Shown piece by piece: positions 45,027 to 64,000 of a stretch of DNA of 64,000 bases (the first letter of the stretch is position 1; every line of letters begins with the position of its first letter). The position numbers and the translations under genes are program-made. The DNA is taken from contig JAJEHI010000048.1 of NCBI GenBank assembly GCA_022823775.1, positions 42,267 through 106,266 of the forward strand, in the 5' to 3' direction. Under the pieces are notes generated by a model that saw only the letters and a list, made by a program, of their open reading frames with translations, made no database searches and was not told the DNA's origin. The stretch is from Defluviicoccus sp. (GTDB lineage Bacteria; Pseudomonadota; Alphaproteobacteria; MPNO01).

Positions 45027-46649
45027 TCAGTAAATCCGGCGGATCGTCCTCAGCTGTCTCGCAATATCCGAAAACGCCGCCCGGAGCGTTTCGGGGTCCC
45101 GGTTTTCCAGGAAAACGTATGTTCCATCCGGTTTTTCCGCCTCGCTGGAGCACGCGCGCAGCGCCGTTCCCAGGGTCCCGGATACATTGTCCGGATGCAT
45201 CGCCGCGATGACGAAGATCTCGGTCCCGGCGGCCTTCGCGGCGTTACACGCCACGGCGCGATCGATGCCGACATCGTTGGTCTCGCAAGCCGGATCGTTA
45301 AGCCCGCACGGGTTGTCCTCTCCGTCCGTAAGCAGCACGATCGCTTTTCGGGTACCGGCGTTGCCCGAAGCGTCGGTGTCTACCGGATGGACGCCGCCGC
45401 CCCATGCATCCGTCCAGGAATGCGACAGCAGCCTTTGCCCCCACAGGACCCCGAGCGTGGAATAGGTCCGGAATCCCACCGGCGCGAGCGAGTCGATCGC
45501 CGCGCGGACCGCCGCGGCGTCGGATGTCAGCGGCAGAATGGATGGAATGACGGTGCCGTCATACGGCGATGTGCAGCCTCTCTGGGCGGACGTGCGGTCG
45601 TAGACCCCCCGCAGGTCGGCGGGGTCGTCGCCGTAACAGACCTGGTAGTTGAAGTTGTCGGGCAGCGGCGACTGCAGGCACTCGTACGCCACCCCCTGTA
45701 CCGACGGGAAGATCGCTTGAGCGAAAGGGTGCGACGACGGGGGGGCGAGCAAATCGGAGACGGCGGGCAGGGACGCATGATCCCCCGGCCCGGAGATCCG
45801 ATGCTCGTCCAGGCAGCCCTGCCAGGTCTCGTCGAATGTGGGCGGGAGCGTGTGGTCGACATCGAAAGCCGTGCAATTGCCCTCCGGTCGGCACGCGTAG
45901 GAGGCGGCATAGTTGCGGCTTTGCGGGTATTTCGCCCAACCGTCGGCTGCCCAGCCGGCCTGCATCGTTGCCGGCAGCCGGACCAGGATGTGCCACGGCA
46001 CCAGCCCCACCGCCACCCGGCTTTCTTCGCGCGGATCGAGAATGTCGACCAGGTCGAGGGCTGCCTGCCTTACGATATTCATCCGGCTGGGATCCTCGCC
46101 CCAGGCCGGAGAGCCATCCAGCCCGTCCCGCATCGACGCGCTGATGTCGATGGCAAGCACCACCTCGACGGCGTTCCTGACACTCTCCACCGCGCTCTCC
46201 CGCGCCACCGGACCCGGTCCGGAATAGCCGAACAGCCGTTCGGATATCGCCGTCCGCCCGATATCCGCCTGGACCGACGCGCCGACCGTTCCCGCCGTCC
46301 GGTCGATATCCAGCGTCACCGAGATATCCCCGGCCTCCAGATCGGGGTCGTTCGTGTTTCCCAGGACGTTCAGAACGGCATATTTTCGCGCGACGGCCAT
46401 AAGCCGTTCCTCCACGTCGCCGTCGGACATGGAGCTCGGCAACCCGCTCAGTTCCAGCGTCGCGGACATCGACACGGCGTCGGCCGCGCTCTTCAGGAGA
46501 TCGCGCCGATCGACGAGCCGATCATGATCGACGATCACGGCCGCGCCGCCCACCGTCATGATGACGACCCCGATGGCGACATAAGCGGTCGCCGCGGCGC
46601 GCCTGTTGCGAAGAAAGCGGCGAACGGGGCGGGTCGAATTCCGGAACAT
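45027..46649 (-). CDS. tadG: TadG-like Flp-pilus assembly protein with von Willebrand factor A domain
   Basis: The N-terminal Tad-like membrane anchor is RRAAATAYVAIGVVIMTVGGAAVIV and the vWA region is VVLAIDISASM...IVLLTDGEDN. Confidence 0.7.
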   Translation of the reverse strand: MFRNSTRPVRRFLRNRRAAATAYVAIGVVIMTVGGAAVIVDHDRLVDRRDLLKSAADAVSMSATLELSGLPSSMSDGDVEERLMAVARKYAVLNVLGNTNDPDLEAGDISVTLDIDRTAGTVGASVQADIGRTAISERLFGYSGPGPVARESAVESVRNAVEVVLAIDISASMRDGLDGSPAWGEDPSRMNIVRQAALDLVDILDPREESRVAVGLVPWHILVRLPATMQAGWAADGWAKYPQSRNYAASYACRPEGNCTAFDVDHTLPPTFDETWQGCLDEHRISGPGDHASLPAVSDLLAPPSSHPFAQAIFPSVQGVAYECLQSPLPDNFNYQVCYGDDPADLRGVYDRTSAQRGCTSPYDGTVIPSILPLTSDAAAVRAAIDSLAPVGFRTYSTLGVLWGQRLLSHSWTDAWGGGVHPVDTDASGNAGTRKAIVLLTDGEDNPCGLNDPACETNDVGIDRAVACNAAKAAGTEIFVIAAMHPDNVSGTLGTALRACSSEAEKPDGTYVFLENRDPETLRAAFSDIARQLRTIRRIY

Positions 46650-46837
46650 TTACGATCGAAACCTTAATTTCTCGGTCGGGGAATGAATGGTCGGCAGGCC
46701 GGTCCGCATGGGGCAGCGCTGATATTCGGCGCCGTGAATCCCGTCAAGCGAATGCCCCCGCGACGGATCGCCGCGCCCCGCCGCCGGTCCGGGGCGCCGG
46801 ACGCACAATCCTCCCCGGCCAACGCGCCGTTTCCGAC

Positions 46838-48952
46838 TCAATAGTAGTAGCCGCCAACCAGCGCCGGGGCGGGTTCGTCCCGCTCTTCCGGAGACCCGCC
46901 GGTCCGGACCAGCCGGGCCGTGACGATCACCACCAGCTCGAGGTCCTCCGATCGTATCGAGCGATGCCCGAACAGCGGTCCCAGCAACGGGATGTCCTTG
47001 AACACCGGGAGGCCCGCCTCCCGCGTGTCGGACGCGTTGCGGAACAGCCCGCCTATCACGATCGAGTCTCCGTCGCCCACTTCGACCGTCGTCTCCGCGC
47101 GGCGCACGTTGATCACCGGGATATTGACGCCCACCACCTGGACCGCCTGGTTCAGCGACGGCTCCGACACTTCGGGCCTGACCTTCAGCACGATCCTGCC
47201 GGCGTCTATGACCGTGGGGACGAAGTCGAGCAGGACGCCGTATTTCTTGTATTCGAACAGGATGACCCCGTCCTCGAACCCGGTCGGCAGCGGGTATTCG
47301 CCACCCGAGAAGAACGACGCCGCCTCGCCCGACACGGCGGTGAGGTTGGGCCTGGCCAGCACGTTCGCCGAGCCGGCCCTGGCAAGCGCGTCGATCATGC
47401 CCGAGATGCGCGTGTCCTTCGTATGCCTGCCGAAGAAGAGACCGGGGGAGGGCTGACCGTCGACGAGTGACGGAGCGAAGGCGCCGATCGCGCTTCCCGC
47501 GACCGACGGGACGCTCGCCAGCCGGCCGATCCGGAAGCCGAACACGTTGTCGCCCGGGGTCCGGAATGCCTCCCAATTGATCCCGAGGTCCTCGCTGAGC
47601 GAGCGCTGGACCTCGGCGATCTGGACTTCAAGGCTCACCTGCTGCGCGCCGGCCACACGCAGTTCGGTTTCGACGACGGTGTCCTTCGGCAGAGCCGCCG
47701 CCGCGAGCCGGAGGGCGCGTTCGGCGAGAGCGGCGGAGGCGACATCGCCCGACAGCGCTATTCCCCGCGCGACCCGCCTCGCCCGTACGCCGCGCAGATC
47801 GGGCTCTCCGGCCAGGTTCGCACGAACGGGTTCGAGGTCGAGCATGACGGACACGATCCAGTCCCGCACCCGACCGTCCTCTCCGAGCACCGCGACGGAG
47901 GTTCTGCCGACGCTCTTGCCGACGATGTACAGCACGTCGGGCGATAGCAGCTGAACGTCCGCCACCTCGGGCGCCGCCACCAGCAGCGAGGTCGCGCTGG
48001 AATCGAGCCCGAGGCGCCTGCTCTGCCCCAGCGAAAGGGTCATCGTCGCCGGCAGGGGGACGCCCGGCGTTCGGTCCGCGGCCGCCTCCGCCTCCGGGAC
48101 CGGCGGCGCCTCCCGCTCCGTTCCGGGACCCTGCGGGGAGGGCCGTTCCGCAATGCGAAGCAGGGCGCCCGTGGACCCCGGCAGCGCCGCTTCGCGGGCC
48201 GCGGGGCCGTCCCCTTCCCGCGCCGGCAGACGCATCGCGAGGCTCGGATGGACCGCACGCGCCGCGGCCTGGCGCCGCCGCTCCCGCCGCGCTTCCTCGA
48301 TCAGATGCCACAGCGAAGAACCGTCCTCGCCCAGCCAGAAGGACGGATCGTGCCGCGCGTGAACCTCCGCCGCGCTCTCTTCCTTCCCGGCCGCCAGCAG
48401 CATGCGCACGAAATTCGCGGTGATCCCCGGATGGCCCGAAGACAGGCGGAGAGCCCGGCGGTATTCCGCCTCGGCCGTCTCGTAATCGCCTTCGAGGCTG
48501 GCGAGGACGCCGATGCCGTTGGCGACCCAGGCCGCCGAGGGCCCCCGTCCCGCCGATTCGCGCGCGCTCCCGAAGTGCCGCCGCGCGTCGTCCAGCGTGC
48601 CTTGGGCGAGCGCCGTCCGCCCCGCGCCGAGGAGCGCTTCCGCCTTGATGGCCGGCGCCTCCTCCGCCAGCGCCGCGGCCCCGAGGAAATAGTCCTTCGC
48701 GGCCGGCAGGTCGTTGTCGAGGGACGCGATATATGCCAGCCCGAGGAGCGGTTCGGGAGCCTCGTCGAAGCGTTCGGCCAGGGAGCGGTATAGCCTGCGG
48801 GCGACCGACGGCTGGCCCGCGGTAAAGGCGGCGGCCGCGACGGACAGGTTGTTTTCAAGAAGATCCTGGCGGCCGGCGGGATCGTCCGACGACGGGCCGG
48901 TCGCGCATGAGGCGACCGCCGCGACCGAGATGAAAACGGCAGCGGCGCGCAT
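46838..48952 (-). CDS. cpaC: CpaC/RcpA-type secretin fused to an N-terminal TadD-like TPR domain; lipoprotein signal
   Basis: Real start MRAAAVFISVAAVASC at 48952. The first ~270 aa are TPR-like. These are followed by the pilus-formation N-domain (LSLGQSRRLGLDSS...VLYIVGKSVGRTSV) and the secretin core (ARPNLTAVSGEAASFFSGGEYP...FKDIPLLGPLFG). Confidence 0.75.
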   Translation of the reverse strand: MRAAAVFISVAAVASCATGPSSDDPAGRQDLLENNLSVAAAAFTAGQPSVARRLYRSLAERFDEAPEPLLGLAYIASLDNDLPAAKDYFLGAAALAEEAPAIKAEALLGAGRTALAQGTLDDARRHFGSARESAGRGPSAAWVANGIGVLASLEGDYETAEAEYRRALRLSSGHPGITANFVRMLLAAGKEESAAEVHARHDPSFWLGEDGSSLWHLIEEARRERRRQAAARAVHPSLAMRLPAREGDGPAAREAALPGSTGALLRIAERPSPQGPGTEREAPPVPEAEAAADRTPGVPLPATMTLSLGQSRRLGLDSSATSLLVAAPEVADVQLLSPDVLYIVGKSVGRTSVAVLGEDGRVRDWIVSVMLDLEPVRANLAGEPDLRGVRARRVARGIALSGDVASAALAERALRLAAAALPKDTVVETELRVAGAQQVSLEVQIAEVQRSLSEDLGINWEAFRTPGDNVFGFRIGRLASVPSVAGSAIGAFAPSLVDGQPSPGLFFGRHTKDTRISGMIDALARAGSANVLARPNLTAVSGEAASFFSGGEYPLPTGFEDGVILFEYKKYGVLLDFVPTVIDAGRIVLKVRPEVSEPSLNQAVQVVGVNIPVINVRRAETTVEVGDGDSIVIGGLFRNASDTREAGLPVFKDIPLLGPLFGHRSIRSEDLELVVIVTARLVRTGGSPEERDEPAPALVGGYYY

Positions 48953-49254: not shown

Positions 49255-49743
49255 ATGCGGAGGCGGCGTTGTTGCATCGCGCGGAAGGTTCTTTTCCGCG
49301 CGTCGTTTCGGAGACGATCCGTGTTCGAACCCGGGTGCCTGCGGCGGGGCATATTCGTCGCCGCGGCGTTTCTGCCGCTGTTGTTTTCGGCTGGATGCCA
49401 GCAACCCCTCGCCGTCCACGACCCGTATTTCAGGCCGGGCAACACGACTGCCGCTGCGCAAGGCGCCGAAGCGAGACGGGTCGTCAGATACCGCCGGGCG
49501 CTGCAGACCGCGCGGAGATCGTGTCCGACCGATGCGTCCGCCGAGGCCGGCACGCGGGACGGTCCGGTCCCGGCGGACAAGGCGGGCCGCGCGGCGCTCG
49601 CGGCGCTTTGCGCCGATTTGCGCGAGCCGTCCACGGCCGCGCATGGCGGGACCTCGAACGCCTATCGGCGGTGGGTGGAAGACAGGATCCGCGAGCTGCC
49701 GAAGGCGGCGGCGACCGGCGCCGGCGCCGCCGGCGGCTCATGA
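49255..49743 (+). CDS. Putative exported/lipoprotein (possibly a CpaD-like pilus assembly lipoprotein); start uncertain
   Basis: Signal-like segment GIFVAAAFLPLLFSAGCQQ. GC3 is very high in this frame; two other overlapping frames are also open (49229.., 49239..) and are judged spurious. Confidence 0.4.
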   Translation: MRRRRCCIARKVLFRASFRRRSVFEPGCLRRGIFVAAAFLPLLFSAGCQQPLAVHDPYFRPGNTTAAAQGAEARRVVRYRRALQTARRSCPTDASAEAGTRDGPVPADKAGRAALAALCADLREPSTAAHGGTSNAYRRWVEDRIRELPKAAATGAGAAGGS

Positions 49744-49788: not shown

Positions 49789-50919
49789 ATGGCGGCGTCT
49801 TCCAAGGCTCACTATGCGCGCGGGTTCGCGGCCGACGCCCGGACCGAGCGGGCATTGCGCGCCGGACTTGCCGGCCGCGACGCGAAGGTCCAGCGAGGAC
49901 GCCTGGAAATCGCGCTCCGCACTCTGGCGGCCGAGCCCGCCTCCAGTCTGGTGTTCGTCGACCTCGACGGCAATTCGGACCCGGAAACCGCGGCCAGGCG
50001 ACTGACCGAAGTTTGCCCTTTCGAGACTGCGGTGGTCGCGATCGGTTCCACCGATTCGGCGCGGTTCGGCCACGCGCTCCTGCAACAGGGGATGGCGGAC
50101 TATCTGGTCAAGCCGCTGTCGGCCGCGGTCGTGCGCGAGGCGGTCGCCGCCCTCAGCGGGGAGGCGCCCGAGCATCTCTACGCGGGAGACGTCATCGCTT
50201 TCGCGGGAAGCCCCGGCAGCGGCGTCTCCACCCTGGTCGCCGCGGTCGCGCACGCCGCCGCCGCCGACGGCCGCACCGCTTCCGTCGTCGACCTCGACCC
50301 GGTTTGCGGCAAGCTCTCCGCGCGGCTCGGCGTCGAACCCGGGGACGGCCTGCGCCCGCTCCTTGCTTCGATCGGCGCCGGCGCGGCCGATGACCCGGAC
50401 CCTCATATCGACCCCGACAGGATCGACCGAATATCGACGCCGGCGGCTTCCGGCATTTCGCTGATCGCTTACCCGAAGGCCGAGGCGCCGCCGGAAAGCG
50501 CCGACGCGGCGGCGCTCTCCGCCCTCTTCAGGCATCTCGCCAACCGGACCCATCTCGTGCTGGCGACCGGGATGCCGGATCCCGAGACGCAGCTTCTGCT
50601 GATGCGGGACGCCGATGCTCGGGTTCTGGTCTACGAACCGACGATAGCGAGCGTCGGCGCCGTGGTGCGTCGGTTGGCGCGGCTCGGCCCCGACCGGCCC
50701 GCCACGCTGGTCCAGTGCTCCACGCGGGGTCGCCGTTACACGCTGTCCTCCGCCCATGTCCGCTACGCGTTCGGCGACCGGCGCCCGGACGTCGTGCTTC
50801 CCTTCGATCCGGCGCTCCACGCGGCCGCCACCGGCAAGCCATCGGGCCGCCCGGGAAAGGCCTACCGCAAGGCGCTGCGCCAGGCGATAGAGCTGGTCGG
50901 ACAAGATCATCGTTCGTGA
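49789..50919 (+). CDS. cpaE: CpaE/TadZ-family pilus assembly protein (receiver-like N-domain + MinD/ParA-like domain), paralogue 1
   Basis: The receiver-like part is LVFVDLDG...ADYLVKPL. The deviant Walker A, IAFAGSPGSGVSTLVAA, lacks the conserved lysines. Confidence 0.7.
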   Translation: MAASSKAHYARGFAADARTERALRAGLAGRDAKVQRGRLEIALRTLAAEPASSLVFVDLDGNSDPETAARRLTEVCPFETAVVAIGSTDSARFGHALLQQGMADYLVKPLSAAVVREAVAALSGEAPEHLYAGDVIAFAGSPGSGVSTLVAAVAHAAAADGRTASVVDLDPVCGKLSARLGVEPGDGLRPLLASIGAGAADDPDPHIDPDRIDRISTPAASGISLIAYPKAEAPPESADAAALSALFRHLANRTHLVLATGMPDPETQLLLMRDADARVLVYEPTIASVGAVVRRLARLGPDRPATLVQCSTRGRRYTLSSAHVRYAFGDRRPDVVLPFDPALHAAATGKPSGRPGKAYRKALRQAIELVGQDHRS

Positions 50920-51306: not shown

Positions 51307-51849
51307 ATGCGGAGCGGGTGCGTGAACCGGATCGTCAGACATGGCTGGCTTGCAGCGCGGGACTTCTGGCGCGCCCGGCGCGCGGCGGTCGCGCTGGAAA
51401 CGGCGATCGCGGTGCCGGTTCTCCTCTTCGCGTTCGCGGGCCTGATGGAAATCGTGCACTCGGCCTATGTCAGCGACAACATGAACCGCGCCGCCCGCGC
51501 CGCCGCCCGAGCGATCGCGATCGCGCCGGACAGCGCGGCGGGTAGCGGCGCGCTCGACAGCGTCGCCTGCACGGCGATCCGGCGCGAACTCAAGCTGGTC
51601 GAGAGTTTCGACTGCGGCGCGAGCTGGACGCTCACGGTCGACACGGATCTCACTCCCGCCGCCTTGCTGGCCGGCGGAGACGGGGGCGACGGCGAGGCGG
51701 ACGGGGACATGGTGGTCGTGCGGATCGCCTGGAGCCGGGAGCCCTGGGAGATCGGCCAGCTCATCGCCTCGCTCGACGAGGGAGACGGCGAGCCCGACCG
51801 CCGGATCGCGGTCGGCGTCGCCCGCCGGGAACCGGTGGCGGGGAGCTGA
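51307..51849 (+). CDS. tadE: TadE/TadF-like pseudopilin-type protein
   Basis: The N-terminal TadE motif is AAVALETAIAVPVLLFAFAGLMEI; 180 aa. Confidence 0.65.
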   Translation: MRSGCVNRIVRHGWLAARDFWRARRAAVALETAIAVPVLLFAFAGLMEIVHSAYVSDNMNRAARAAARAIAIAPDSAAGSGALDSVACTAIRRELKLVESFDCGASWTLTVDTDLTPAALLAGGDGGDGEADGDMVVVRIAWSREPWEIGQLIASLDEGDGEPDRRIAVGVARREPVAGS

Positions 51850-51856: not shown

Positions 51857-52528
51857 GTGACCGCGCTCCCGTCCCTCCCGCTCCGGTCCTTCGTCCGCGA
51901 CACGCGCGCCCTGGCCGGTATCGAGCTCGCGTTCGGATCCGTGGCGCTCGCGACGATCGCCACGCTGTGCTTCGACCTCTACTCGCTGGTCGGCGTCACC
52001 AGCGCCAGCGCGCGTAGCGCCGTCGCCATGGCGGAGTACGTTTCGCGCGACAGCGCCCCGGACGGGGATCAGGTGACGGCGCTGGGCCGGTTCCTGCACC
52101 GGGAGGAGTTCGGCGCCCCCGCCGATCTGGTCTACGTGATCTCCGCCGTCCGGCGTCCGCCGGGGGACGAGCCCGCGGAAGTCCTGTGGGTCGACGACAC
52201 GATCCGGTTCGGCGACTCCGCGACGACGGCGGCCCTCGCCGGCGAGTGCGCCCGCCGCGGCAGCGCGGGCTGGCGGGCCGGGCTGCTTGGCGCGCCGGGC
52301 TCCCTCGGCATGAGCGAGGGGGAGGTGGCGATCGTGGCCGAGGTCTGCGCGCGTCCCATGCGCGAGGGCATGCTTTCCGGCCGCCTGGTCACCGGAGACA
52401 TCTACCGCGTTCATATCCTGCCGTCCCGCGATCCCCGGCAGGCGCCAGAGCCGCCAGTCCATTCGACCTCGGCGGAGGACACGGACAGGACGGGCGCCGG
52501 TCCGCCGCACAAGGTTTCGATTTCATGA
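51857..52528 (+). CDS. tadF: TadE/TadF-like protein (second copy)
   Basis: GTG start; N-terminal LAGIELAFGSVALATIATLCFDLYS; 223 aa. Confidence 0.6.
   Translation: MTALPSLPLRSFVRDTRALAGIELAFGSVALATIATLCFDLYSLVGVTSASARSAVAMAEYVSRDSAPDGDQVTALGRFLHREEFGAPADLVYVISAVRRPPGDEPAEVLWVDDTIRFGDSATTAALAGECARRGSAGWRAGLLGAPGSLGMSEGEVAIVAEVCARPMREGMLSGRLVTGDIYRVHILPSRDPRQAPEPPVHSTSAEDTDRTGAGPPHKVSIS

Positions 52529-54612: not shown

Positions 54613-54613
<1 letters not shown>
53111..54613 (+). CDS. cpaE: CpaE/TadZ-family protein, paralogue 2, with a ~140-aa acidic/Pro-rich N-terminal extension
   Basis: The receiver-like region is LVIVDIDG...SDYLVKPL. The MinD-like domain has the Walker A-like GFAGTGGSGATTLAVA, again without lysine. 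Confidence 0.7.
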
Positions 54614-56006
<1,393 letters not shown>

Positions 56007-56010
<4 letters not shown>

Positions 56011-56983: not shown

Positions 56984-57955
56984 ATGCAGAACGCCTTCAT
57001 ACCGGTCGCCGGACTCGTCCTGGGCGCCGCCTACGTGCTGCTTCTCGCGCCGCTGATTATCCGGGAAACGCGGCGGGCGCAGCAAATGGACAGGCGGTTG
57101 ACCGCGTTGCGCGATTCCCCGTTCGGCTACGCCGCCGGACACGCGGCCCGCGACGGCGGCCGGGGCAAGGCCCTGATCAGGGCGCTCGGCCTGACGGCCA
57201 TGCGTGTGGCGTCGATGCTGGTCCCGATCGGCGCGGCCGAGCGCGAGAAACTCACCCGCATGCTCCGCGCGGGCGGCTTCGGGCAGCACGAAGCGCTCTC
57301 CGTTTTCCTCTCCGCGAAGCTCGGCGGCGCGTTCCTCCTCGCCATCGGCGCCGGGCTCTGGGCGACCTCTTCGGAGACGGTCGGACAGCACGCGTTTCTC
57401 GCCCTGTTCGCCGCGCTGGCGGGCTTCGTGATCGGCGGTGTCATCCCGGAATACGTGCTGCGTGCGCTGGTGGCCCGAAGGCTGCAACGGATGACCGCGG
57501 TCCTGCCCGACGCGCTGGACATGCTGGTGATGTGCCTCGAATCCGGCCTGACGGCGGAACGGGGAATCCTGACGGTCGCCGACACGCTGGCGCCCATCGA
57601 GCCCAATCTCGCCAGGGAGTTCCAGCAGATCGAGGCGGAGCTGCGGGTCGCGTCGGACCGCCGCGCGGCGCTCACCGAGTATTACCGGCGCACGGAGATC
57701 GACGGTCTGCGCGACCTCGTGATGGCGCTCATACAGGGCGACCGGTACGGCACCCCGCTGTCCCAGTCGATGAAGAACATCGCGGCCGACGAACGGATGC
57801 AAAAGGCGGCGCGCATCGCGACCCAGGCCGAGCGCCTGCCGGTCCTGATGACCCTGCCGATGATCATTCTCGTGGTTCCCGGAACCATGCTCCTGGTGGC
57901 GGGCCCCGCCGTTCTGGGCGCGCTTACCGGGCTGGCAAAAATGAGTGGCGGATAG
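56984..57955 (+). CDS. tadC: TadC (T2SS-F-domain inner-membrane platform protein)
   Basis: Start MQNAFIPVAGLVLGAAYVLL; 323 aa with a T2SSF domain. Confidence 0.8.
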   Translation: MQNAFIPVAGLVLGAAYVLLLAPLIIRETRRAQQMDRRLTALRDSPFGYAAGHAARDGGRGKALIRALGLTAMRVASMLVPIGAAEREKLTRMLRAGGFGQHEALSVFLSAKLGGAFLLAIGAGLWATSSETVGQHAFLALFAALAGFVIGGVIPEYVLRALVARRLQRMTAVLPDALDMLVMCLESGLTAERGILTVADTLAPIEPNLAREFQQIEAELRVASDRRAALTEYYRRTEIDGLRDLVMALIQGDRYGTPLSQSMKNIAADERMQKAARIATQAERLPVLMTLPMIILVVPGTMLLVAGPAVLGALTGLAKMSGG

Positions 57956-57956
57956 G

Positions 57957-58943
57957 ATGTACAAGACGCGCGGTCGCTCTTCCGCCGGACGGGCGGTTTC
58001 CCTGCTTGCCACTTTGGCCGCGGGCCTCACGTGGCTCGCCTGCGGCGATCTCCGCGCCGAGGAGCCGATCCTGCCGATCCCCGAAAATGTCGACGTCGAT
58101 CCGGCCAAGGTCGAGCTGGGCCGAAAGCTGTTCCACGACCCGATATTGTCGAAGGACGGCACGATCTCCTGCGCTAGCTGCCACGATCTGGCGGGCGGCG
58201 GCGATGACGGCCGCAAGATTTCGCTCGGCGTCGACGACAAGCCGGGAATGGTCAACTCGCCCACCGTGTTCAACGCGGGCATGAACTTCAAGCAGTTCTG
58301 GGACGGCCGCGCGAGCACGCTCGAGCATCAGATCGACGGTCCGGTGCAAACCGCCTTCGAGATGGGCAGTCTCTGGCCGGACGTCGTCGCCAAGCTCTAC
58401 CGCGACGGCGCCTATCCCAAGCTCTTCAAGAAGAGCTATCCCGACGGGATCAATCGCAAGAACGTCAAAAACGTCATCGCCGAGTTCGTAAGGTCCCTCA
58501 ACACTCCCAACAGCCGCTTCGACCGGTGGCTGAAAGGCGACAAGAACGCTCTCAACGCGCAGGAAAAGCGCGGCTACGCATTGTTCAAGGACTATGGCTG
58601 CTCGTCGTGCCACCAGGGCGCGAACGTCGGCGGGAACATGTTCCAGGTGTTCGGCGTCCTGAACGACTACTTCAAGAAACGCGGCAACATCACGGAAGCC
58701 GATCTGGGCCGCTACAACATCACCGGAAACGAAGAAGACCGGCACGCCTTCAAGGTTCCCAGCCTGCGGATGGCGGCGATGACGGCACCCTATCTGCATG
58801 ACGGAAACGCGGCCACGCTCCGCGACGCCGTCGACGCGATGTTCGAATTTCAACTGGGGCGCGAAGCCCCCGACAAGGACAAGGAAGCCATCGTGGCGTT
58901 CATCGAGACGCTGGTGGGCGAATCCAAGGAGCTATCGAAATGA
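57957..58943 (+). CDS. ccpA: Di-haem cytochrome c peroxidase (CcpA/MauG family), periplasmic
   Basis: Two CxxCH haem motifs (CASCHD, CSSCHQG), a signal peptide, and the conserved FKVPSLRMAAMTAPYLHDG. The track begins at a GTG at 57945; the ATG at 57957 is preferred. Confidence 0.85.
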   Translation: MYKTRGRSSAGRAVSLLATLAAGLTWLACGDLRAEEPILPIPENVDVDPAKVELGRKLFHDPILSKDGTISCASCHDLAGGGDDGRKISLGVDDKPGMVNSPTVFNAGMNFKQFWDGRASTLEHQIDGPVQTAFEMGSLWPDVVAKLYRDGAYPKLFKKSYPDGINRKNVKNVIAEFVRSLNTPNSRFDRWLKGDKNALNAQEKRGYALFKDYGCSSCHQGANVGGNMFQVFGVLNDYFKKRGNITEADLGRYNITGNEEDRHAFKVPSLRMAAMTAPYLHDGNAATLRDAVDAMFEFQLGREAPDKDKEAIVAFIETLVGESKELSK

Positions 58944-60733
58944 GGTCTGGCGCAGTCATTCTCGGCATTGCCGTCTCCGCCGTCCTGCTGGCCGTCGCGG
59001 GCGGTCTTTATGTGCTGGCGGGCAATAACAGCGGAGACGGTTATCGCAAGGCGATCGATCTCGTGCGGCAGATCCAGCTGCTGTCGTCGGAATGGAGCAT
59101 GGAAGTCACGCGCGTGAAATCCGATCAGTTCGCCGATTTCGACTCGCTGGCCGCCTTCCTGCCGCGCATGGCGCGGCTGAAGGACGAGCTTGCCGACACG
59201 GCCCAGCGCATCCCCCAACTTCCCGACCGGATCGCCAGCGACATGCAGGCCTATCTCAACGCGATCGAAGCGAAGGAAGAGCGCATAGAACGCTTCAAGA
59301 CGGGCTACGCCGTGGTGCGCAACTCCAACCGCTACCTGCCGCTGGCCGCGACCAACGTCCTGCAGCAGGCGCAGAACTCGAGGGACGACGCGCTGGTCCG
59401 GAATATTTCGAGCCTGATCCGGGATGTGAACCTCTATCTCGCCACGCCGACGGACACGTCCCAGTCCCGGCTGACCGCCGAGATCAAGAAGCTCCGCGAA
59501 TCCAGCGTCTCCTATCCGCCTCCGCTCGCCAACGCGCTGGCCAATCTGTTCTCCCACGCCGAGGTGCTTGTGGCCAAGCAGGGGCCGACGGAGGAGCTGT
59601 TCAAGAGGGCCACGTCCGGCGAAGTCTCCGACCTGACGGAGCAGCTGAGCAGCAATCTGCAGTTCGAGCTCGGCAAGAAGGTGCTCCTCGCGACCTATTA
59701 CGACCGGGGCATTCTCGTGGTGTTCGCCGCGCTGATCCTGTTCTGGATCCTGCTCGCGCTGCAGCAGCGGATTCGCGGCGGCTCCGCCGTGACCCGGGTC
59801 GCTTCCCGCCCCTCGGCGATCGAGATCGCACCCGCGCCCGCCGGCGCCGGGGAGGCCGTCGTCGCGGCGGAGGAGACGCATCCGGCGCCGGTGCGGCCCG
59901 CGCCCGTCGAGGCGGAAGCCATCCGTCTGCCCGACGAACCCGAATCCCTGCCCGTCGCGGCGGCGGCTTCGTCCCCGGAACCGAGCGCCGAATCCATCCT
60001 GATGCAAGGGTTCGTCGTCAAATGCGTGGCCGGAATCATGGCCGCCTCGGCCGACGAAATCGCCGGCCGCATGGAGTATCTGCGCCGAACCCAGAACAGG
60101 ATCCAGGACGCCTTCCGAAACAGCGACGGTATCGCGGAAACGTCCGATGGAACGGATGTCGACGAAGAGATCGAAACGATCTCCGCCATCGCGCTGAGCG
60201 TCCGCCAGAGGATGAACGGCATCGCCGATCTCGCGAAGCGGCTCGACTCCTATTCCAACGGTCACGCCAACGGGGCGGACCGCGGAATGATCGACCTCAA
60301 CGCCTGTGTCGAGAACGTCATCGAGACCGCCGGTGCCGCGAACCGGGCGACGGTCGTGAGGAACCTGGGCGACATCCCGGAGATATTCGCCTCCAGGACC
60401 GAATTTCAGCTGCTCCTGTCGGAACTGATCGACAACTCGATGGTCGCGGTCGAGGGACTCGACGACAGAAAGGGCATCATCAAGATCGATACCGCGCGGA
60501 AGAACGACGAAATCCTGATCACCGTCATCGACAATGGCGACGGTATCGCCCCCGACAAGCGCGCGAACATCTTCAAGCCGTTCTACACGTCCCGCGACGG
60601 GGCGATGGGCATCGGCCTGACCCTCGCCGGTCACCTGGTCAAGAAATACGAGGGGGTCATCAAGATCAATTCGTTGCCCGGCCAGGGGACGGTGGCGCGC
60701 GTCACGCTGCCGGCCGGCGTGTCGGGGGCGTAG
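58940..60733 (+). CDS. Membrane sensor histidine-kinase-like protein (two TM helices, periplasmic domain, C-terminal HATPase_c); no canonical H-box recognised
   Basis: N-box LLLSELIDNSMVA, G1 DNGDGI, F FKPFYT, G2 GMGIGL. TM1 AVILGIAVSAVLLAVAGGLYV and TM2 ILVVFAALILFWILLAL. The ATG overlaps the ccp stop. Confidence 0.65.
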   Translation: MRSGAVILGIAVSAVLLAVAGGLYVLAGNNSGDGYRKAIDLVRQIQLLSSEWSMEVTRVKSDQFADFDSLAAFLPRMARLKDELADTAQRIPQLPDRIASDMQAYLNAIEAKEERIERFKTGYAVVRNSNRYLPLAATNVLQQAQNSRDDALVRNISSLIRDVNLYLATPTDTSQSRLTAEIKKLRESSVSYPPPLANALANLFSHAEVLVAKQGPTEELFKRATSGEVSDLTEQLSSNLQFELGKKVLLATYYDRGILVVFAALILFWILLALQQRIRGGSAVTRVASRPSAIEIAPAPAGAGEAVVAAEETHPAPVRPAPVEAEAIRLPDEPESLPVAAAASSPEPSAESILMQGFVVKCVAGIMAASADEIAGRMEYLRRTQNRIQDAFRNSDGIAETSDGTDVDEEIETISAIALSVRQRMNGIADLAKRLDSYSNGHANGADRGMIDLNACVENVIETAGAANRATVVRNLGDIPEIFASRTEFQLLLSELIDNSMVAVEGLDDRKGIIKIDTARKNDEILITVIDNGDGIAPDKRANIFKPFYTSRDGAMGIGLTLAGHLVKKYEGVIKINSLPGQGTVARVTLPAGVSGA

Positions 60734-60857: not shown

Positions 60858-62177
60858 ATGACTTCGCGGGGAGATCGAAACAGCAGCCTGCGGATGCAGC
60901 TGGTGTCCAACGCGCTCCTGAGCGTCGCGCTGCCGATCCTGATCGTCGGCGGATTGACCTTCTTTCTGCTCGCGTATCATCTCGACATCATCGAGACGAG
61001 CTTCGCGCGGAGCCGGGATGCGGTAACCAACGACATCGCGCGGACCGACCTCGTGTCGCGGGCGACAACCACCGCGAGCCAGATCGATACTTTCCTGGTC
61101 AGCCGTATCACCGAAGCCAAGGCCTGGGCGACGTCGAAGGCCGTCGTCGAGGCCGCCCGGTCGGCCGGCGCCAGGCACGCGGCCGAGGGGTTCGTCAAGA
61201 CCCCCGCCGCCGAGGTCGAAAGGAGATTCCGCATCGAAAAGAGCCTGGGCCTCTGGCCGGAAGCCGATTCCTTCCTGCGCCAGCAGGTCGCGGCGTCGCC
61301 TTACTTCGCGGAACTCTTCTTTACCGACAGCAACGGTTTCAACGTCGCGCTCACCAACCCCACCAGCGATTTCATCCAGTCCGACGAGGAATGGTGGAAG
61401 CGAGCCTGGAGCCAGGGGATTTCCGTGGGCGAGGTCGAGTACGACGACTCCGCCGGGGTCTGGTCCGTGGAAATCTCGGTCCGGATAGACAACCCGACCG
61501 GGAAAAAGGCGCTCGGCGTCATGAAGACGGTGCTCGCCATCGAGCCCATTCAGAACATCGCCGACAGGGCGGCCCAGTCCGTTCCGGGCGGCCGCGTCCA
61601 GGTCGCGACGGGGCGCGGCGCGCTGATCGCCGAGACGGCCTCCGGCCACGCCCGGGAACGAATTATGAATGGCGAAGTCAACGTGCAGGAACAGGGCGAA
61701 CCGTCGGTGCGGGCCGGTTTCGGCGGTGAACAGACGGGGTTCGCCACCGACCGGGAATGGCTCACGGGGTACGCCCGGACCGGCGGCCGCGAGACCTATG
61801 CTTCCGCCGTCGGCCGGTTCGCGGGTTTCGACTGGATCGTGATCGTCCAGAAACCGATCGCCGCCATCCACGAGCCGATCACGGCGCTTCGCGGTATCGA
61901 GGACGCGCTGCGCGATTGGCGCCTCATTCTCGCGCTGGCCCTGGGCGGCATGGCGTTGCTGAGTTCGGTGCTGGCGATTTCCCTCGCCGTCGGGGCCGCC
62001 CGGCGTTACGCGAACGCCCTGGGCGCGGTCACCGAGATGGCCGAACGTTCGGCCCGGGGCGAACGGGTCAGTCCCGCGGTCATCCGCAACCCCCAGGAGA
62101 TCGTTCGCGTGAACGACGCCGTCCATCGCCTGGTTCAGGTGTTCGCCGGCGTCCGGGAGCGACCGCGAGCGACGTAG
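60858..62177 (+). CDS. Cache-domain sensor with two TM helices and a C-terminal HAMP domain, lacking any output domain
   Basis: TM1 LLSVALPILIVGGLTFFLLA, a ~300-aa periplasmic Cache-like region, TM2 LILALALGGMALLSSVLAISLAV, then HAMP-like NALGAVTEMAERSARGERVSPAVIRNPQEIVRVNDAVHRLVQVF, followed by the stop. Confidence 0.6.
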   Translation: MTSRGDRNSSLRMQLVSNALLSVALPILIVGGLTFFLLAYHLDIIETSFARSRDAVTNDIARTDLVSRATTTASQIDTFLVSRITEAKAWATSKAVVEAARSAGARHAAEGFVKTPAAEVERRFRIEKSLGLWPEADSFLRQQVAASPYFAELFFTDSNGFNVALTNPTSDFIQSDEEWWKRAWSQGISVGEVEYDDSAGVWSVEISVRIDNPTGKKALGVMKTVLAIEPIQNIADRAAQSVPGGRVQVATGRGALIAETASGHARERIMNGEVNVQEQGEPSVRAGFGGEQTGFATDREWLTGYARTGGRETYASAVGRFAGFDWIVIVQKPIAAIHEPITALRGIEDALRDWRLILALALGGMALLSSVLAISLAVGAARRYANALGAVTEMAERSARGERVSPAVIRNPQEIVRVNDAVHRLVQVFAGVRERPRAT

Positions 62178-62262
62178 GTCCGGTCCGCCGCCCCTTTGCG
62201 AACCGACGGGACCCGTCGAATGACGATCCCGCGAGGATGCGCGGAGAGGCGCGCGCGGCAAG

Positions 62263-62745
62263 GTGGAGAGCCGTTCGATGGCGAACGCAACCGCATGGAT
62301 CGTCTGGCTGGCGGGGTGGGCCGCATGCGGCCTGTTCGTCGCCGCCGCGGTCAGCGACCTTCGGACCCGCCAGGTGTCGAACGCGATACCCCTGCTGCTG
62401 CTCGGGCTTTTCGCGGTGTACGCGGCGGCCGGCGCGGTCCGGCCCGCAACGTCGCTCTGGCAGCATCTGGCGATAGGCGCCGTACTGCTCGCCGCCGGTT
62501 TCGCGCTCTACACGACCGGTCGCTTCGGCGGGGCCGATGCGAAGCTGATCGCCGTGGCGGGGTTGTGGGCCGGTCCGAACGACCTGGCGGCGTTCCTGTT
62601 CGTTCTGGGCGGGTGCGCTTTGTTGCTGAGCCTGTATGCCTTGCTGCCTCACGCGGGGGCGCGGCGTCTGCGGTCGGAACTTCCCTTCGCCCTGGCGATC
62701 GCGCCGCCGAGCCTGGCGGTCATCGTCCCGCGCGCGCTGCCATGA
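62263..62745 (+). CDS. cpaA: Prepilin peptidase CpaA/TadV (A24 family)
   Basis: 160 aa polytopic membrane protein; the catalytic Asp contexts are AAVSDLRTRQVSN and GGADAKL. Confidence 0.75.
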   Translation: MESRSMANATAWIVWLAGWAACGLFVAAAVSDLRTRQVSNAIPLLLLGLFAVYAAAGAVRPATSLWQHLAIGAVLLAAGFALYTTGRFGGADAKLIAVAGLWAGPNDLAAFLFVLGGCALLLSLYALLPHAGARRLRSELPFALAIAPPSLAVIVPRALP

Positions 62746-62783
62746 CGTCCCCGGGACGGCGCTAGAACGGGAGATCTTCCCCG

Positions 62784-64000
62784 ATGCAAAGATACCGTAC
62801 GGTTATCGTCCTGCTTCTCCTGGTGGCCGTGCCGCTTGCCGCGGCGGTGGTCGCGGCGCGCTTCTTCATGCCCGGAACCGGTGCCGAGCCGGGTCGGGCG
62901 GAAGCGAAGCAGGTGGCTCCCGGCCCCGCCGAGAAGCCGAAGATGCGCAAGATCTTCGTGGCCGCCCGCAGGCTTCCGGTGGGCACGCTGTTGACCGATG
63001 ACGATCTGACGACGCTCGATCTGCCGGAAAATGAGATCAGGCGCGCCCATCTCGCGATGGACGGCCCGAAGGCGGTCGACGGGCTGCGCGGCCACGCGGT
63101 GCGCGAGCCCGTCGCCGCGGGTGCGCCGCTCGTCCGGTCGGCGGTCGTCGGACCGGGCCAGCGGGGCTTCCTCGCGGCCGTTCTCAAGCCCGGCACGCGC
63201 GCGGTGACGATCCGGCTCGGAAAGGGGGCGAGACATGCCGGCCTGATCGATCCGGGCGATCGGGTGGACGTGATTCTCACCGCCAAGCTGCGGCTCGAAG
63301 GTCGGGTGCAGACGGTGTTCGCGCGGACCATCCTGGAGGACGTGCGCGTCGTCGCCGTCGACCGCCAAGTCGGGGCGAGCACCGAAACGCCCGAGGGCGG
63401 CAAGCGGGTCAAGCGGACCGAAATCCTCACCGCGACGCTGGAGGTCTCGCCGGCCCAGGCGGATCGTCTGGCGCTGGGCGAACACGAGGGCGAGCTCTCG
63501 CTCGCGGTGCGCTCCCTCATCGGTGCCGTGGAGCGGGTGCGAAACGAAGCGGTGGACCTCCAGGAGCTGTTGTCCCTGACCAAGGAGGCGCCGCCCTCCT
63601 CCGAGCCGGCCGCGCCCGCCCCGCCGCCGCCGATCGTCGAGGAGCCCGCGACACGGGCGGTTCTCGCGGCGGCCCGGGCGCTGCCCGTGGGGACGCTTCT
63701 CACGGGCGAGGACTTCGCCGAAATCGAGATCGCGGCGGAAGACGTCCGGCGCGAGCATGTCGTCGCGGCCGACGGCGCGGCGATCGAATCGTTGCGCGGA
63801 TATGCCGTCCGCGAGCCGGTCGGTGCCGGAGCGGCTCTCACCTGGTCCTCCGTCGTCGGACCCGGTCAGAGAGGCTTTCTCGCGGCCGTTCTCGATCCCG
63901 GCACCCGCGCGGTGACGATCCAGCTCGGAAAAGGAACGAGGCATGCCGGCCTGATCGATCCGGGCGATCGCGTGGACGTGATCCTGACCGCGAAGCTGGC
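62784..64000 (+). CDS. cpaB: CpaB/RcpC Flp-pilus assembly protein, 3'-truncated by window edge, containing an internal tandem duplication of the SAF-RcpC module
   Basis: Manual translation of frame 0 from the ATG at 62784 gives MQRYRTVIVLLLLVAVPLAAAVVAARFF..., with the block KIFVAARRLPVGTLLT...VVGPGQRGFLAAVLKPGTRAVTIRLGKGARHAGLIDPGDRVDVILTAKL occurring twice. It is not in the ORF track because there is no stop in the window. Confidence 0.75.
   Translation, partial: MQRYRTVIVLLLLVAVPLAAAVVAARFFMPGTGAEPGRAEAKQVAPGPAEKPKMRKIFVAARRLPVGTLLTDDDLTTLDLPENEIRRAHLAMDGPKAVDGLRGHAVREPVAAGAPLVRSAVVGPGQRGFLAAVLKPGTRAVTIRLGKGARHAGLIDPGDRVDVILTAKLRLEGRVQTVFARTILEDVRVVAVDRQVGASTETPEGGKRVKRTEILTATLEVSPAQADRLALGEHEGELSLAVRSLIGAVERVRNEAVDLQELLSLTKEAPPSSEPAAPAPPPPIVEEPATRAVLAAARALPVGTLLTGEDFAEIEIAAEDVRREHVVAADGAAIESLRGYAVREPVGAGAALTWSSVVGPGQRGFLAAVLDPGTRAVTIQLGKGTRHAGLIDPGDRVDVILTAKL
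63060..64000 (+). repeat. Intragenic tandem duplication, period 708 bp (236 codons), within cpaB; last ~150 bp of each copy about 85-90% identical at the nucleotide level
   Basis: Seen directly: gtcgtcggaccgggccagcggggcttcctcgcggccgttctcaagcccggcacgcgcgcggtgacgatccggctcggaaagggggcgagacatgccggcctgatcgatccgggcgatcgggtggacgtgattctcaccgccaagctg at ~63144 against a near-identical run at ~63852. Confidence 0.7.

Follow-up and report, generated by a model that had tools for sequence, protein, structure and literature searches.

The Tad locus and its parts

The window, that is, the whole 64,000-nucleotide stretch of Defluviicoccus DNA that was analyzed, contains at 45027-64000 a complete Tad/Flp (type IVc) pilus gene set. 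Genes were called by codon-position GC together with Pfam, NCBIfam and PDB searches. The locus is chromosomally encoded and extends ~3.9 kb beyond the window end, with a conserved 650-aa orphan and then a TPR-SPOR protein after CpaB. The Tad functions encoded are the Flp prepilin, CpaA peptidase, CpaF ATPase, TadB/TadC platform, two CpaE/TadZ proteins, CpaB, secretin, TadE/TadF pseudopilins and a TadG-like VWA protein; no match to CpaD was found in the locus. The genes are:

44031..44996, + strand: LysR-family regulator (GcvA-like, not OxyR-like), possibly associated; Pfam HTH_1, LysR_substrate
45027..46649, - strand: TadG-like VWA protein with N-terminal membrane helix; weak Pfam VWA_2/VWA
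46838..48952, - strand: secretin (CpaC/RcpA type) with fused lipoprotein signal and TPR; Pfam Secretin, T2SS-T3SS_pil_N, TPR_19/12/16
~49255..49743, + strand: small lipoprotein, start uncertain; lipobox LFSAGC, orthologues
49789..50919, + strand: CpaE1; profile match to PDB 4n0p, 4myr
51307..51849, + strand: TadE pseudopilin; Pfam TadE
51857..52528, + strand: TadF-like second pseudopilin; prepilin-like N-terminus
52683..52922, + strand: Flp-type prepilin, 79 aa; sub-threshold Pfam Flp_Fap, invariant motif
53111..54613, + strand: CpaE2; profile match to PDB 4myr, 4n0p
54613..56010, + strand: CpaF/TadA secretion ATPase; Pfam T2SSE
56007..56966, + strand: TadB platform protein; Pfam T2SSF, 1.1e-16
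56984..57955, + strand: TadC platform protein; Pfam T2SSF, 1.4e-15
57957..58943, + strand: periplasmic di-haem cytochrome c peroxidase (CCP); Pfam CCP_MauG, two CxxCH motifs
58940..60733, + strand: DAHL + HATPase_c membrane sensor, predicted pseudo-histidine kinase; Pfam DAHL, HATPase_c
60858..62177, + strand: membrane dCache sensor; Pfam dCache_1 below gathering threshold
62278..62745, + strand: CpaA/TadV prepilin peptidase, 155 aa; Pfam Peptidase_A24
62784..64000, + strand, running off the window: CpaB/RcpC with two tandem SAF+RcpC modules; Pfam RcpC, SAF, TIGR03177

An earlier sequence-only reading had listed a full Tad component set, and every gene it listed was confirmed in its order and orientation. 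The secretin and TadG-like genes, both on the minus strand, diverge from the others, all on the plus strand; the Flp gene lies between the tadE/F genes and the second cpaE; and cpaA and cpaB are split from tadC by the three redox/sensing genes for CCP, the DAHL kinase and dCache.

The secretin gene product matches Pfam Secretin (2.6e-40) and T2SS-T3SS_pil_N (3e-16) as well as the TPR models. Its N-terminus is a TadD/CpaO-like lipoprotein signal plus TPR region, with a lipobox (VASC, LSGC or LTGC) kept among orthologues. This TPR-lipoprotein-secretin fusion also occurs in related loci L002, L006, L008, L023-25 and L042, and it is matched over its full length in ~9 of the 150 best clusters at 50% identity. 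The VWA domain of the TadG-like protein has a DxSxS MIDAS motif, with AIDISASM kept across orthologues (50-71% identity in L002, L006 and L008). TadE reaches 26.5 bits against a gathering threshold of 22.9, and its N-terminus VA(V/L)ETA is kept. The TadF-like protein has no Pfam match; the call comes from its prepilin-like N-terminus (AAGIELxxG) and hydrophobic helix, and its orthologues are 54-75% identical. The Flp prepilin scores 21.8 bits with Flp_Fap, below the gathering threshold of 32.2, and its processing motif, [A/G]|VSALEYA(I/L)LVG, does not vary across 10 orthologues. CpaF (T2SSE 2.3e-60; best NCBIfam family, the TadA family) is 74-86% identical across related loci. CpaA (Peptidase_A24 5.5e-15) lacks a methyltransferase domain and has its two catalytic Asp residues in the contexts SDLR and GGADAK. 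Full-length CpaB, taken from L017, has 586 aa and two stretches each of RcpC and SAF. With TIGR03177 it reaches 328 bits (cut-off 71), and its two modules are 61% identical; some loci show a tandem duplication of CpaB. A fold match was sought for the 650-aa orphan and none was found.

The small lipoprotein gene was missing from the earlier gene list. Its product matches nothing in Pfam or NCBIfam, but orthologues of 38-71% identity occur in L002, L006-L009, L032 and L042; it travels with the secretin and CpaE1. An opposite-strand ORF called at this site by the ENA pipeline shows poor conservation.

Two CpaE/TadZ paralogues

Neither CpaE1 nor CpaE2 matches any Pfam ParA/AAA_31 model. Their identification comes from profile matches to two structures of CpaE N-terminal domains, 4n0p and 4myr, at E 2e-6 to 4e-12, together with weak MinD/ArsA/TadZ P-loop matches. 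The CpaE1 family profile hits 4n0p ("Pilus assembly protein CpaE") at E 3.5e-11, along with 4myr, and CpaE1 matches NCBIfam CpaE_hom_Actino at 1e-10, below the family cut-off. CpaE1 comprises a receiver-like domain and a MinD/ParA-like domain with degenerate Walker A GSxGSGxST; its identity to CpaE2 is 35%. The CpaE2 profile hits 4myr at E 3.8e-12, also 4n0p, and the P-loop regions of ArsA/MinD/FleN/TadZ (3fkq). CpaE2 adjoins CpaF, has an acidic, proline-rich N-terminal extension of 104-220 aa, and has in common with ordinary CpaE proteins the motif HELAEVCE. The receiver-like domains of the CpaE proteins retain the Asp, Asp, Ser and Lys-Pro positions. The double cpaE is not confined to the window; both paralogues are present in L002, L006-L009, L021, L032 and L042.

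Conservation of the core in related loci

The core block CpaE2-CpaF-TadB-TadC-CCP-DAHL kinase was found in every related locus recovered, at 46-87% protein identity, and its order is the same in all ~22 independent related loci. We found this order in nine species-level genomes (L001-L009; CpaE2 53-67% identical), in 12 metagenome loci reached with the kinase alignment, and in four further contigs; some related loci lie on complete MAG chromosomes. The arrangement, recurring in this way, is neither chance nor misassembly; its order lies far outside what chance would give. Every carrier recovered is a MAG or metagenome contig from uncultured Alphaproteobacteria (Defluviicoccus, Thalassobaculaceae, unclassified), so the order is not the norm of a well-studied clade. 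No description of this locus was found in the literature searched. The earlier suggestion of a distinct, possibly uncharacterized Tad subtype thus holds up, as a conserved Tad variety whose recovered carriers are to date all uncultured Rhodospirillales-like bacteria. In the more remote CpaE relatives L010-L016 the genes run CpaA-CpaB-CpaE-CpaF-TadB-TadC, as is ordinary for Caulobacter-type cpa loci, with neither CCP nor kinase.

A peroxidase and a His-less kinase in the motor operon

By sequence, the CCP is an ordinary bacterial di-haem peroxidase (CCP_MauG 1.7e-56; PDB 9qdt, E 1.5e-88; 1iqc, 3e-73). Its gene starts 2 nt past the end of tadC and ends in a 4-nt overlap with the beginning of the kinase gene; the end of cpaF and the beginning of tadB likewise share 4 nt. 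The overlaps and spacings at cpaE2/cpaF, cpaF/tadB, tadC/ccp and ccp/kinase indicate translational coupling. The DAHL kinase family was met 28 times, and in 27 cases the CCP gene is the immediate 5' neighbour of the kinase gene; 22 of these 27 loci have sufficient upstream sequence, and in every one of them TadC comes before CCP. Thus, of the CCP/kinase/Cache insertion noted in the sequence-only reading, the first two genes recur together elsewhere, while the third is optional: dCache is present in about two-thirds of related loci and absent from L005, L009, L022-25 and L042. The dCache protein (dCache_1 28.9 bits) has a short tail that reads as HAMP-like, and no output domain.

The DAHL protein matches Pfam DAHL (5.6e-29) and HATPase_c (3.3e-19), with no Pfam match to HisKA in the window's copy. 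Among 120 homologues, position 370, where the His would be expected, holds Ser in 95 cases and Ala in 22; the latter count makes S370 no obligatory phospho-site. No alignment column within 283-449 exceeds 31% His in these 120 homologues, so that a conserved phospho-acceptor His is absent, and the N, G1, F and G2 ATP-binding boxes are invariant. An AF2 model has a DHp-CA fold with a DHp-like hairpin, matching ZraS, HK853, CpxA, CckA and DivL. Alignment and model together characterize the protein as a predicted pseudo-histidine kinase, a kinase fold with intact HATPase_c but without the phospho-acceptor His. As to an output partner, the locus encodes no response regulator, STAS protein or other obvious substrate.

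Comparison with known systems

The Caulobacter vibrioides cpa locus reads pilA-cpaA-cpaB-cpaC-cpaD-cpaE-cpaF-tadB-tadC, plus cpaI-O (PMC10934763). The Caulobacter cpa/pilA and Agrobacterium/Sinorhizobium ctp/flp-1 systems have the component families Flp pilin, CpaA, CpaB, CpaC secretin, CpaE, CpaF, TadB/C, TadE/F-like CpaJ/K and TPR protein CpaO in common with the window locus (PMC10934763). Unlike them, the latter places the pilin between pseudopilins and cpaE2, and cpaA and cpaB 3' of tadC beyond the CCP/kinase/Cache genes; it also has two cpaE in one locus, no CpaD match, the TPR-secretin fusion, the 650-aa orphan and the duplicated CpaB.

The scrambled order that the sequence-only reading took as an oddity is real but not unusual. 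The order of Tad genes changes readily in evolution, and the genes for secretin and pilotin may lie outside the cluster; S. meliloti flp-2 (pSymA) is a split Tad cluster without a secretin (PMC10934763). Within the family described here secretin, TadG and CpaE1 change place (L018, L023-25, L042), and the variant loci L018 and L028 likewise have no secretin nearby. Both flp-2 and Myxococcus Kil are non-canonical or split clusters. Split or non-canonical loci having already been described, gene scrambling is not the novelty. However, flp-2 and Kil have no peroxidase or His-less kinase in the motor operon, and the core order of the window locus is conserved over many genomes rather than being a one-off. 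The hallmarks, seen only in part in the earlier reading, are at the protein level: the His-less kinase, its obligatory CCP partner and the 650-aa orphan beyond the window. The two CpaE/TadZ paralogues, the TPR-lipoprotein-secretin fusion and the CpaB tandem duplication of some loci are distinctive too.

Proposed role of the sensor module

We consider it probable that this is a complete Tad/Flp system of a subtype particular to its lineage and conserved there, whose motor operon has taken in a periplasmic sensing module. CCP-DAHL pairs with a normal HisKA domain also exist away from Tad loci, in Myxococcota, which indicates that the present Tad lineage captured the pair as a sensing module. From conserved adjacency and overlapping genes alone, we infer that the module and the pilus are linked. 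CCP and the periplasmic DAHL domain, often with the dCache protein, would form a periplasmic redox or peroxide sensor. The cytoplasmic kinase-like half, presumably incapable of His-Asp phosphotransfer, would for that reason modulate pilus assembly directly, through protein-protein contact or a non-His ATP-dependent step. Its most plausible targets would be the receiver-like domains of both CpaE paralogues, which dock the CpaF motor. Piliation may thus be gated by redox or peroxide, such that adhesion or piliation would track the oxidative state of the environment.

The putative CpaE-kinase contact is proposed by analogy to Caulobacter DivL, a His-to-Tyr pseudokinase that reads a receiver domain and likewise has a DHp-CA fold without the phospho-acceptor His (PMC4211667). 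In a Foldseek search the DAHL protein model matches, among others, DivL structure 4q20. DivL, however, has PAS inputs and a cytoplasmic or polar location, whereas the DAHL protein is predicted to sit in the membrane and sense the periplasm, with Ser/Ala at the site.

A possible objection is that CCP/DAHL/Cache is an independent peroxide-defence or sensing cassette that became fixed in the Tad operon without controlling the pilus. The CCP, ordinary as it appears, could be a mere protective enzyme co-expressed with an envelope machine, and related loci do carry other inserted cargo (AAA_15, beta-helix and Amt genes in L019; a membrane/spermidine-synthase-like gene in L018). Moreover, in three Polyangiales MAGs (L033, L039, L040; the L040 DAHL protein is a 176-aa partial) a CCP gene directly precedes a DAHL gene, overlapping or nearly abutting it, among unrelated neighbours on Myxococcota-type contigs; none of these pairs adjoins Tad genes. 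They resemble the window's pair in two-gene arrangement and in DAHL homology (hhalign probability 95%). Three points nonetheless make a mere passenger unlikely. First, the CCP-DAHL position, between tadC and cpaA or Cache, is invariant from 46% up to 87% identity while the rest of the locus was rearranged over the same range. Second, stop and start codons overlap, which points to co-translation. Third, the stand-alone L033 and L039 kinases keep the canonical HisKA H-box (SHEIRTPL; PF00512), but the Tad-linked kinases uniformly lack the His, which suggests a changed, locus-specific role.

Less probable still is indirect transcriptional control, in which the His-less sensor would set tad expression by modulating an unlinked kinase/regulator (RetS/GacS style) or the LysR protein. 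The P. aeruginosa flp-tad-rcp genes offer a parallel: they are controlled by the neighbouring PprAB two-component system, a sensor kinase gene being likewise tied to the Tad locus as presumed controller. PprA/PprB, however, is a conventional His kinase and response regulator pair acting on transcription, while the window kinase has no His, no regulator and, as partner, a periplasmic haem peroxidase. The lack of an encoded output partner would fit such indirect control, as would the LysR gene flanking many loci (L002, L004-L006, L008, L019, L042). Yet this gene is absent from the available sequence of L007, L009 and L021, and its product is GcvA-like (best NCBIfam matches chol_sulf_TF and GcvA, both below cut-off), with no redox-sensing link; within 10 kb, no locus showed a partner kinase.

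It is very improbable that the apparatus is a Tad-like machine repurposed for, e.g., contact-dependent killing, as in the Myxococcus Kil system, or redox/electron exchange through the filament with CCP as periplasmic partner: despite the unusual parts (two CpaE, duplicated CpaB, an orphan without fold match, a haem protein in the operon) and the known repurposed Tad systems of Myxococcus (Kil, cited in PMC10934763) and Bdellovibrio (bioRxiv 10.64898/2026.07.08.737194), the locus has no toxin-, effector- or multi-haem-conduit-like gene, and in its Flp pilin and TadE/F/G set it is a typical adhesive Tad pilus locus.

Gene complement

Because the window is about 70% GC, long spurious ORFs abound in it; reading frames were therefore chosen by third-position GC, and the translations were then searched against Pfam, NCBIfam and PDB sequences. 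This procedure reproduced the gene list, order and orientations of the earlier sequence-only reading.

Genes of the Tad/Flp locus (window coordinates, strand, identification)
45027-46649, minus: TadG-like protein, N-terminal membrane helix and VWA domain with DxSxS MIDAS motif
46838-48952, minus: TPR-secretin, 704 aa; conserved lipoprotein signal (lipobox VASC), TPR region, T2SS-T3SS_pil_N and Secretin, in that order
~49255-49743, plus: small lipoprotein, family unknown
49789-50919, plus: CpaE1
51307-51849, plus: TadE
51857-52528, plus: TadF-like pseudopilin, by motif only
52683-52922, plus: Flp prepilin, 79 aa
53111-54613, plus: CpaE2
54613-56010, plus: CpaF
56007-56966, plus: TadB
56984-57955, plus: TadC
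57957-58943, plus: di-haem cytochrome c peroxidase (CCP)
58940-60733, plus: DAHL + HATPase_c membrane protein (DAHL protein, or kinase)
60858-62177, plus: dCache membrane protein
62278-62745, plus: CpaA
62784 to past the window end, plus: CpaB

Since every defining Tad component is encoded, the locus belongs to the Tad/Flp family. CpaF is a TadA/CpaF-type hexameric secretion ATPase (Pfam T2SSE, 2.3e-60; top NCBIfam match the TadA family, 1.5e-95; Walker A GGTGAGKTT), and TadB and TadC are two paralogous platform proteins (Pfam T2SSF, 1.1e-16 and 1.4e-15). CpaA, at 155 aa, is of the TadV/CpaA type, with a Peptidase_A24 match (5.5e-15), both Asp motifs and no methyltransferase domain. The secretin is of the RcpA/CpaC type (Pfam Secretin, 2.6e-40; T2SS-T3SS_pil_N, 3e-16), and CpaB is of the RcpC/CpaB type, scoring 328 bits with TIGR03177 against a cut-off of 71. 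The 79-aa prepilin carries an [A/G]|VSALEYA motif that is invariant in 10 orthologues; its Pfam Flp_Fap score (21.8) lies below the curated cut-off (32.2), so that its membership among Flp-type prepilins is based on motif, size and context. The weakest identifications are those of both CpaE proteins, the Flp prepilin and the second pseudopilin.

As had been proposed, the gene order departs from the canonical flp-tadV-rcpCAB-tadZABCDEFG and pilA-cpaA-F layouts, both in our gene calls and on the source scaffold. Canonical order is no strict criterion for the family, because split and rearranged loci such as flp-2 of S. meliloti and the Kil system of Myxococcus are already accepted as Tad (PMC10934763).

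Extent and genomic setting

We found the kinase-like protein at 100% identity on the ENA metagenome scaffold KELL22-1_SAMN22237341_METAG-scaffold_122 (170,641 bp; L017 among our loci), which carries the locus beyond the window end: the complete CpaB (586 aa), a 650-aa protein lacking Pfam domains and a 399-aa TPR-SPOR protein are followed by unrelated PIN and MFS genes. CpaB consists of two SAF+RcpC modules sharing 61% identity (window 62784-64000; L017:13845-15605), an internal tandem duplication; the protein has this doubled form in the window, L002, L007, L008 and L021, and is single in Defluviicoccus-type loci.

On the 5' side, directly before a LysR gene, lie fpg, ubiE, ubiB, coaBC, dut, ThiF/MoeB-like and DsrE-like genes (window 37069-43856). 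These housekeeping genes indicate that the locus is chromosomal and not island-like; together with zero full-length kinase homologues on 72,556 plasmids, they rule out a plasmid or mobile-island origin. Translation of the longest ORF, with a provisional start, gives the coaBC product an N-terminal extension of unusual length (581 aa). The LysR neighbour resembles GcvA and choline-sulfate regulators, which rules it out as an OxyR-like peroxide regulator. A promoter and terminator scan gave no signal above shuffled expectation, such a scan being uninformative in 70% GC DNA.

The plus-strand lipoprotein (49255-49743) recurs in seven loci and overlaps a public gene call, a 219-aa minus-strand gene in ENA at 48985-49644. 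In the same closest relative the minus-strand ORF is 38% conserved and the lipoprotein 71%; from this and the recurrence of the lipoprotein, the minus-strand gene is probably spurious and the public call probably wrong.

Conservation of the locus

Scanning one genome per GTDB species with CpaE2, the CpaE copy beside CpaF, gave 16 loci (L001-L016), onto which all window proteins were then mapped. The scan used exact peptide patterns, which cultured carriers could have escaped; all carriers found are uncultured. In L001-L009, which belong to MAGs of Defluviicoccus, Thalassobaculaceae and unclassified Alphaproteobacteria and include two complete chromosomes, CpaE2 is 53-67% identical and the common order is TadE-(TadF)-Flp-CpaE2-CpaF-TadB-TadC-CCP-DAHL protein-(Cache)-CpaA-CpaB-650-aa protein. 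In the more distant L010-L016 (29-39% identical) the genes follow the ordinary CpaA-CpaB-CpaE-CpaF-TadB-TadC order, and CCP and kinase are both absent. A metagenome scan with the kinase-family alignment, together with six genomic contexts (four of them of kinase-family members), added about a dozen independent loci.

The insertion of CCP, kinase and Cache genes and the doubled cpaE, singled out in the sequence-only reading, do recur elsewhere. The whole window arrangement, including LysR, the divergent TadG and TPR-secretin, the small lipoprotein and CpaE1, is found in L002, L006 and L008. CCP lies immediately upstream of the kinase in 27 of the 28 occurrences of the kinase family, the sole exception being a second kinase copy in L041 with a 513-aa CCP-like gene farther upstream. 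In all 22 of those 27 whose upstream sequence spans about 2.2 kb or more, TadC precedes CCP. The Cache gene is optional, being absent in about a third of loci, and CpaB may be single or doubled. The same order in independent assemblies, including the complete MAG chromosomes OY763326.1 and OZ242200.1, rules out misassembly or chance.

It is the locus periphery that varies, the Cache and CpaB differences included. The TPR-secretin is found downstream on the same strand, after TPR-SPOR, in L023-25 and L030; in L042 it is likewise downstream after TPR-SPOR, and the lipoprotein and CpaE1 come after it. In L018 and L028, TadG follows the 650-aa gene and there is no secretin or CpaE1 nearby.

A distinct Tad-like subtype had been suggested; that the locus represents a conserved Tad subtype is well supported. 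In the open-access literature we found no description of a Tad locus with a peroxidase, of a function of the DAHL domain, or of this subtype, although absence there is no proof.

One genome can hold two paralogous systems, since L004/L018 and L008 lie on one 5.3-Mb contig (CBDDOM010000002.1). The second copy on this contig lacks CpaE1, TadF and a nearby secretin, and has a gene for a 716-aa polytopic membrane/spermidine-synthase-like protein between Flp and CpaE2; it may borrow the secretin of the first copy. Downstream of the Tad-linked CCP-kinase pair of L041 (L041:12406-19777) are genes for the 513-aa CCP-like protein, a second DAHL+HATPase_c protein and a dCache protein, which points to duplication of the sensing module. 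In L019 (L019:11829-17180), an insertion with AAA_15/AAA_21 ATPase, beta-helix and ammonium-transporter genes separates kinase and Cache, indicating that the region downstream of the kinase tolerates cargo insertion.

The kinase has 607 homologues in metagenomes at E<=1e-10; identity is 55% or more throughout the best 120, all of them DAHL+HATPase_c proteins. For the 650-aa protein there are 204 metagenomic homologues, none with a Pfam domain; the locus defines an orphan family without detectable sequence or fold relatives.

Two CpaE paralogues

CpaE1 and CpaE2 are paralogues with 35% identity. Neither has a Pfam ParA-type match. The profiles of both match the solved CpaE N-domains 4n0p and 4myr (E from 2e-6 to 4e-12) and, weakly, the P-loop regions of ArsA, MinD, FleN and TadZ (3fkq). 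Both thus appear to have the TadZ/CpaE architecture, a receiver-like N-domain followed by a MinD/ParA-like domain with an atypical Walker A. The latter (GSxGSGxST or GTGGSGATT) is more degenerate than the GxRGGVGxTT of ordinary CpaE, and the receiver-domain Asp, Asp, Ser and Lys-Pro positions are kept in both.

CpaE2 adjoins CpaF, has the HELAEVCE motif in common with ordinary CpaE and is slightly nearer to it, while CpaE1 accompanies the secretin and small lipoprotein (window, L042). CpaE2 further has an N-terminal extension (window 53111-53470) of 104-220 aa that is strongly acidic (D+E 18-52 against K+R 2-7) and proline-rich; a [DE][FL]xxxLLxGL motif, recurrent there in most orthologues, may be a docking motif.

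The peroxidase and the DAHL protein

The peroxidase has two haem motifs (CASCH and CSSCH) and a Pfam CCP_MauG match of 1.7e-56. Its best PDB matches are 9qdt (1.5e-88), the Nitrosomonas CCP 1iqc (3e-73) and 1eb7 (2e-60), with MauG reaching just 1e-20. Two CxxCH motifs and full-length homology to solved bCCPs thus predict a bona fide bacterial di-haem CCP. The ccp gene starts 2 nt past the tadC stop and ends in a 4-nt overlap with the start of the DAHL gene.

In its AF2 model the DAHL protein has a first transmembrane helix, an all-helical periplasmic domain, a second transmembrane helix, a disordered Pro/Ala-rich linker (283-349), a two-helix hairpin (350-394 / 404-444) and an alpha/beta ATP-binding domain. 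Foldseek aligned hairpin and ATP-binding domain over about 250 columns onto the DHp-CA of ZraS, HK853, CpxA and CckA, with E down to 1e-10, and likewise matched that of DivL, so that the hairpin is modelled as the DHp hairpin of a sensor histidine kinase. The CA domain is readily recognized (HATPase_c, 3.3e-19), with N499, DxGxG, FxPF and GxGL (N, G1, F and G2 boxes) invariant in 120/120 homologues.

The H-box is missing: the protein has no Pfam HisKA match, DHp helix 1 of the window protein has no His, and where the His is expected 95 of the 120 homologues have Ser and 22 have Ala; no column of 283-449 exceeds a His frequency of 31% among them. Since hhalign, run with the kinase family and a canonical DAHL kinase, aligned the DAHL domain alone and gave no residue-level alignment of the H-box, the His-equivalent residue is assigned from its place in the helix and from the lack of any conserved His. 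We infer from these observations that the DAHL protein has a histidine-kinase fold incapable of His-Asp phosphotransfer.

In the six annotated contexts we found no response regulator gene in the locus or the 10 kb around the kinase; the only receiver-like domains at the locus are those of CpaE1 and CpaE2. The dCache protein, as read from its sequence, ends in a short HAMP-like segment without an output domain. On one rival reading, the CCP/DAHL module would exert an indirect effect on transcription.

Distant DAHL proteins with a CCP gene directly upstream were found among unrelated neighbour genes in L033 and in the Polyangiales MAG contigs L039 and L040; the two genes overlap in L039 and L040 and are ~20 nt apart in L033. 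By hhalign (probability 95%), the DAHL domains of these proteins and of the Tad-linked ones are homologous. L033 and L039 encode proteins in which a canonical H-box (SHEIRTPL, PF00512) is retained; the L040 protein is a 176-aa partial which ends before the H-box region. By these three cases, CCP-DAHL would be a pre-existing two-gene sensing unit; the Tad lineage therefore appears to have captured the unit, with the kinase losing its histidine afterwards. A rival reading makes the captured module a passenger of the Tad locus; these Tad-free occurrences favour that reading, and the fixed position between TadC and CpaA or Cache speaks against it.

Possible redox control of the pilus machine

The gene calls and conserved order predict a complete Tad machine with CCP and a His-less DAHL sensor in a conserved, translationally coupled position inside the motor operon. 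Under the mechanism that we propose, periplasmic peroxide or redox state would be sensed by CCP, the DAHL domain and often Cache, and the cytoplasmic kinase-like half would pass the signal on without His-Asp phosphotransfer, with CpaE1 and CpaE2, through their receiver-like domains, as the obvious candidate targets. As a precedent DivL comes closest: this kinase too lacks the His, and it reads a receiver domain (PMC4211667); by analogy the DAHL protein might read the CpaE receiver-like domains in a similar way, which we consider rather unlikely. A long shot is the fuller proposal that the DAHL protein is a transmembrane switch reading the haem redox/peroxide state of CCP, whose DHp-like hairpin would bind the CpaE1/CpaE2 receiver-like domains or the 650-aa protein and so gate CpaF docking directly. 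If true, redox state would gate this type IV pilus post-translationally, the machine would include a pseudokinase as a built-in part, and the DAHL domain would have its first assigned function, as a haem-protein co-sensor.

More generally, loss of the kinase histidine suggests that a type IV filament machine is here controlled in a non-canonical and possibly direct way. A sensor kinase also adjoins the Tad locus of P. aeruginosa (PprAB), but that is a conventional two-component system, unlike the His-less DAHL protein here. Tad pili serve in attachment, biofilm and floc formation; another rival reading takes the present machine for something other than an adhesive pilus. To our knowledge, just a few model organisms have shown how Tad pilus assembly is coupled to signals from the environment. 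The lineage is a natural case of a sensing module (periplasmic peroxidase, DAHL sensor and often Cache sensor) hard-wired into a motor operon, and the putative regulatory logic of the subtype is of interest. Through the locus, CCP becomes a testable candidate partner for the DAHL domain. Defluviicoccus, one of the carriers, competes in wastewater treatment as a glycogen accumulator and passes through alternating anoxic and oxic phases, and adhesion, if redox-dependent in this genus, would have ecological and practical meaning.

The TPR-secretin fusion

No separate gene for a TadD/CpaO-type TPR lipoprotein was found at the locus; its lipobox and TPR region are fused to the secretin N terminus, and a separate TPR-SPOR protein is encoded downstream, outside the window. 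The fusion is not specific to the window, with full-length matches in about 9 of the 150 best 50%-identity clusters, while ordinary CpaC proteins (440-500 aa) match the C-terminal 400 residues only. A self-lipidated TPR-secretin may do without a separate pilotin. The representative search with the secretin also returned three giant relatives (P0244-P0246; 2,337-2,815 aa, with 26-32 matched stretches), which appear to carry many repeated N-domains before a C-terminal secretin.
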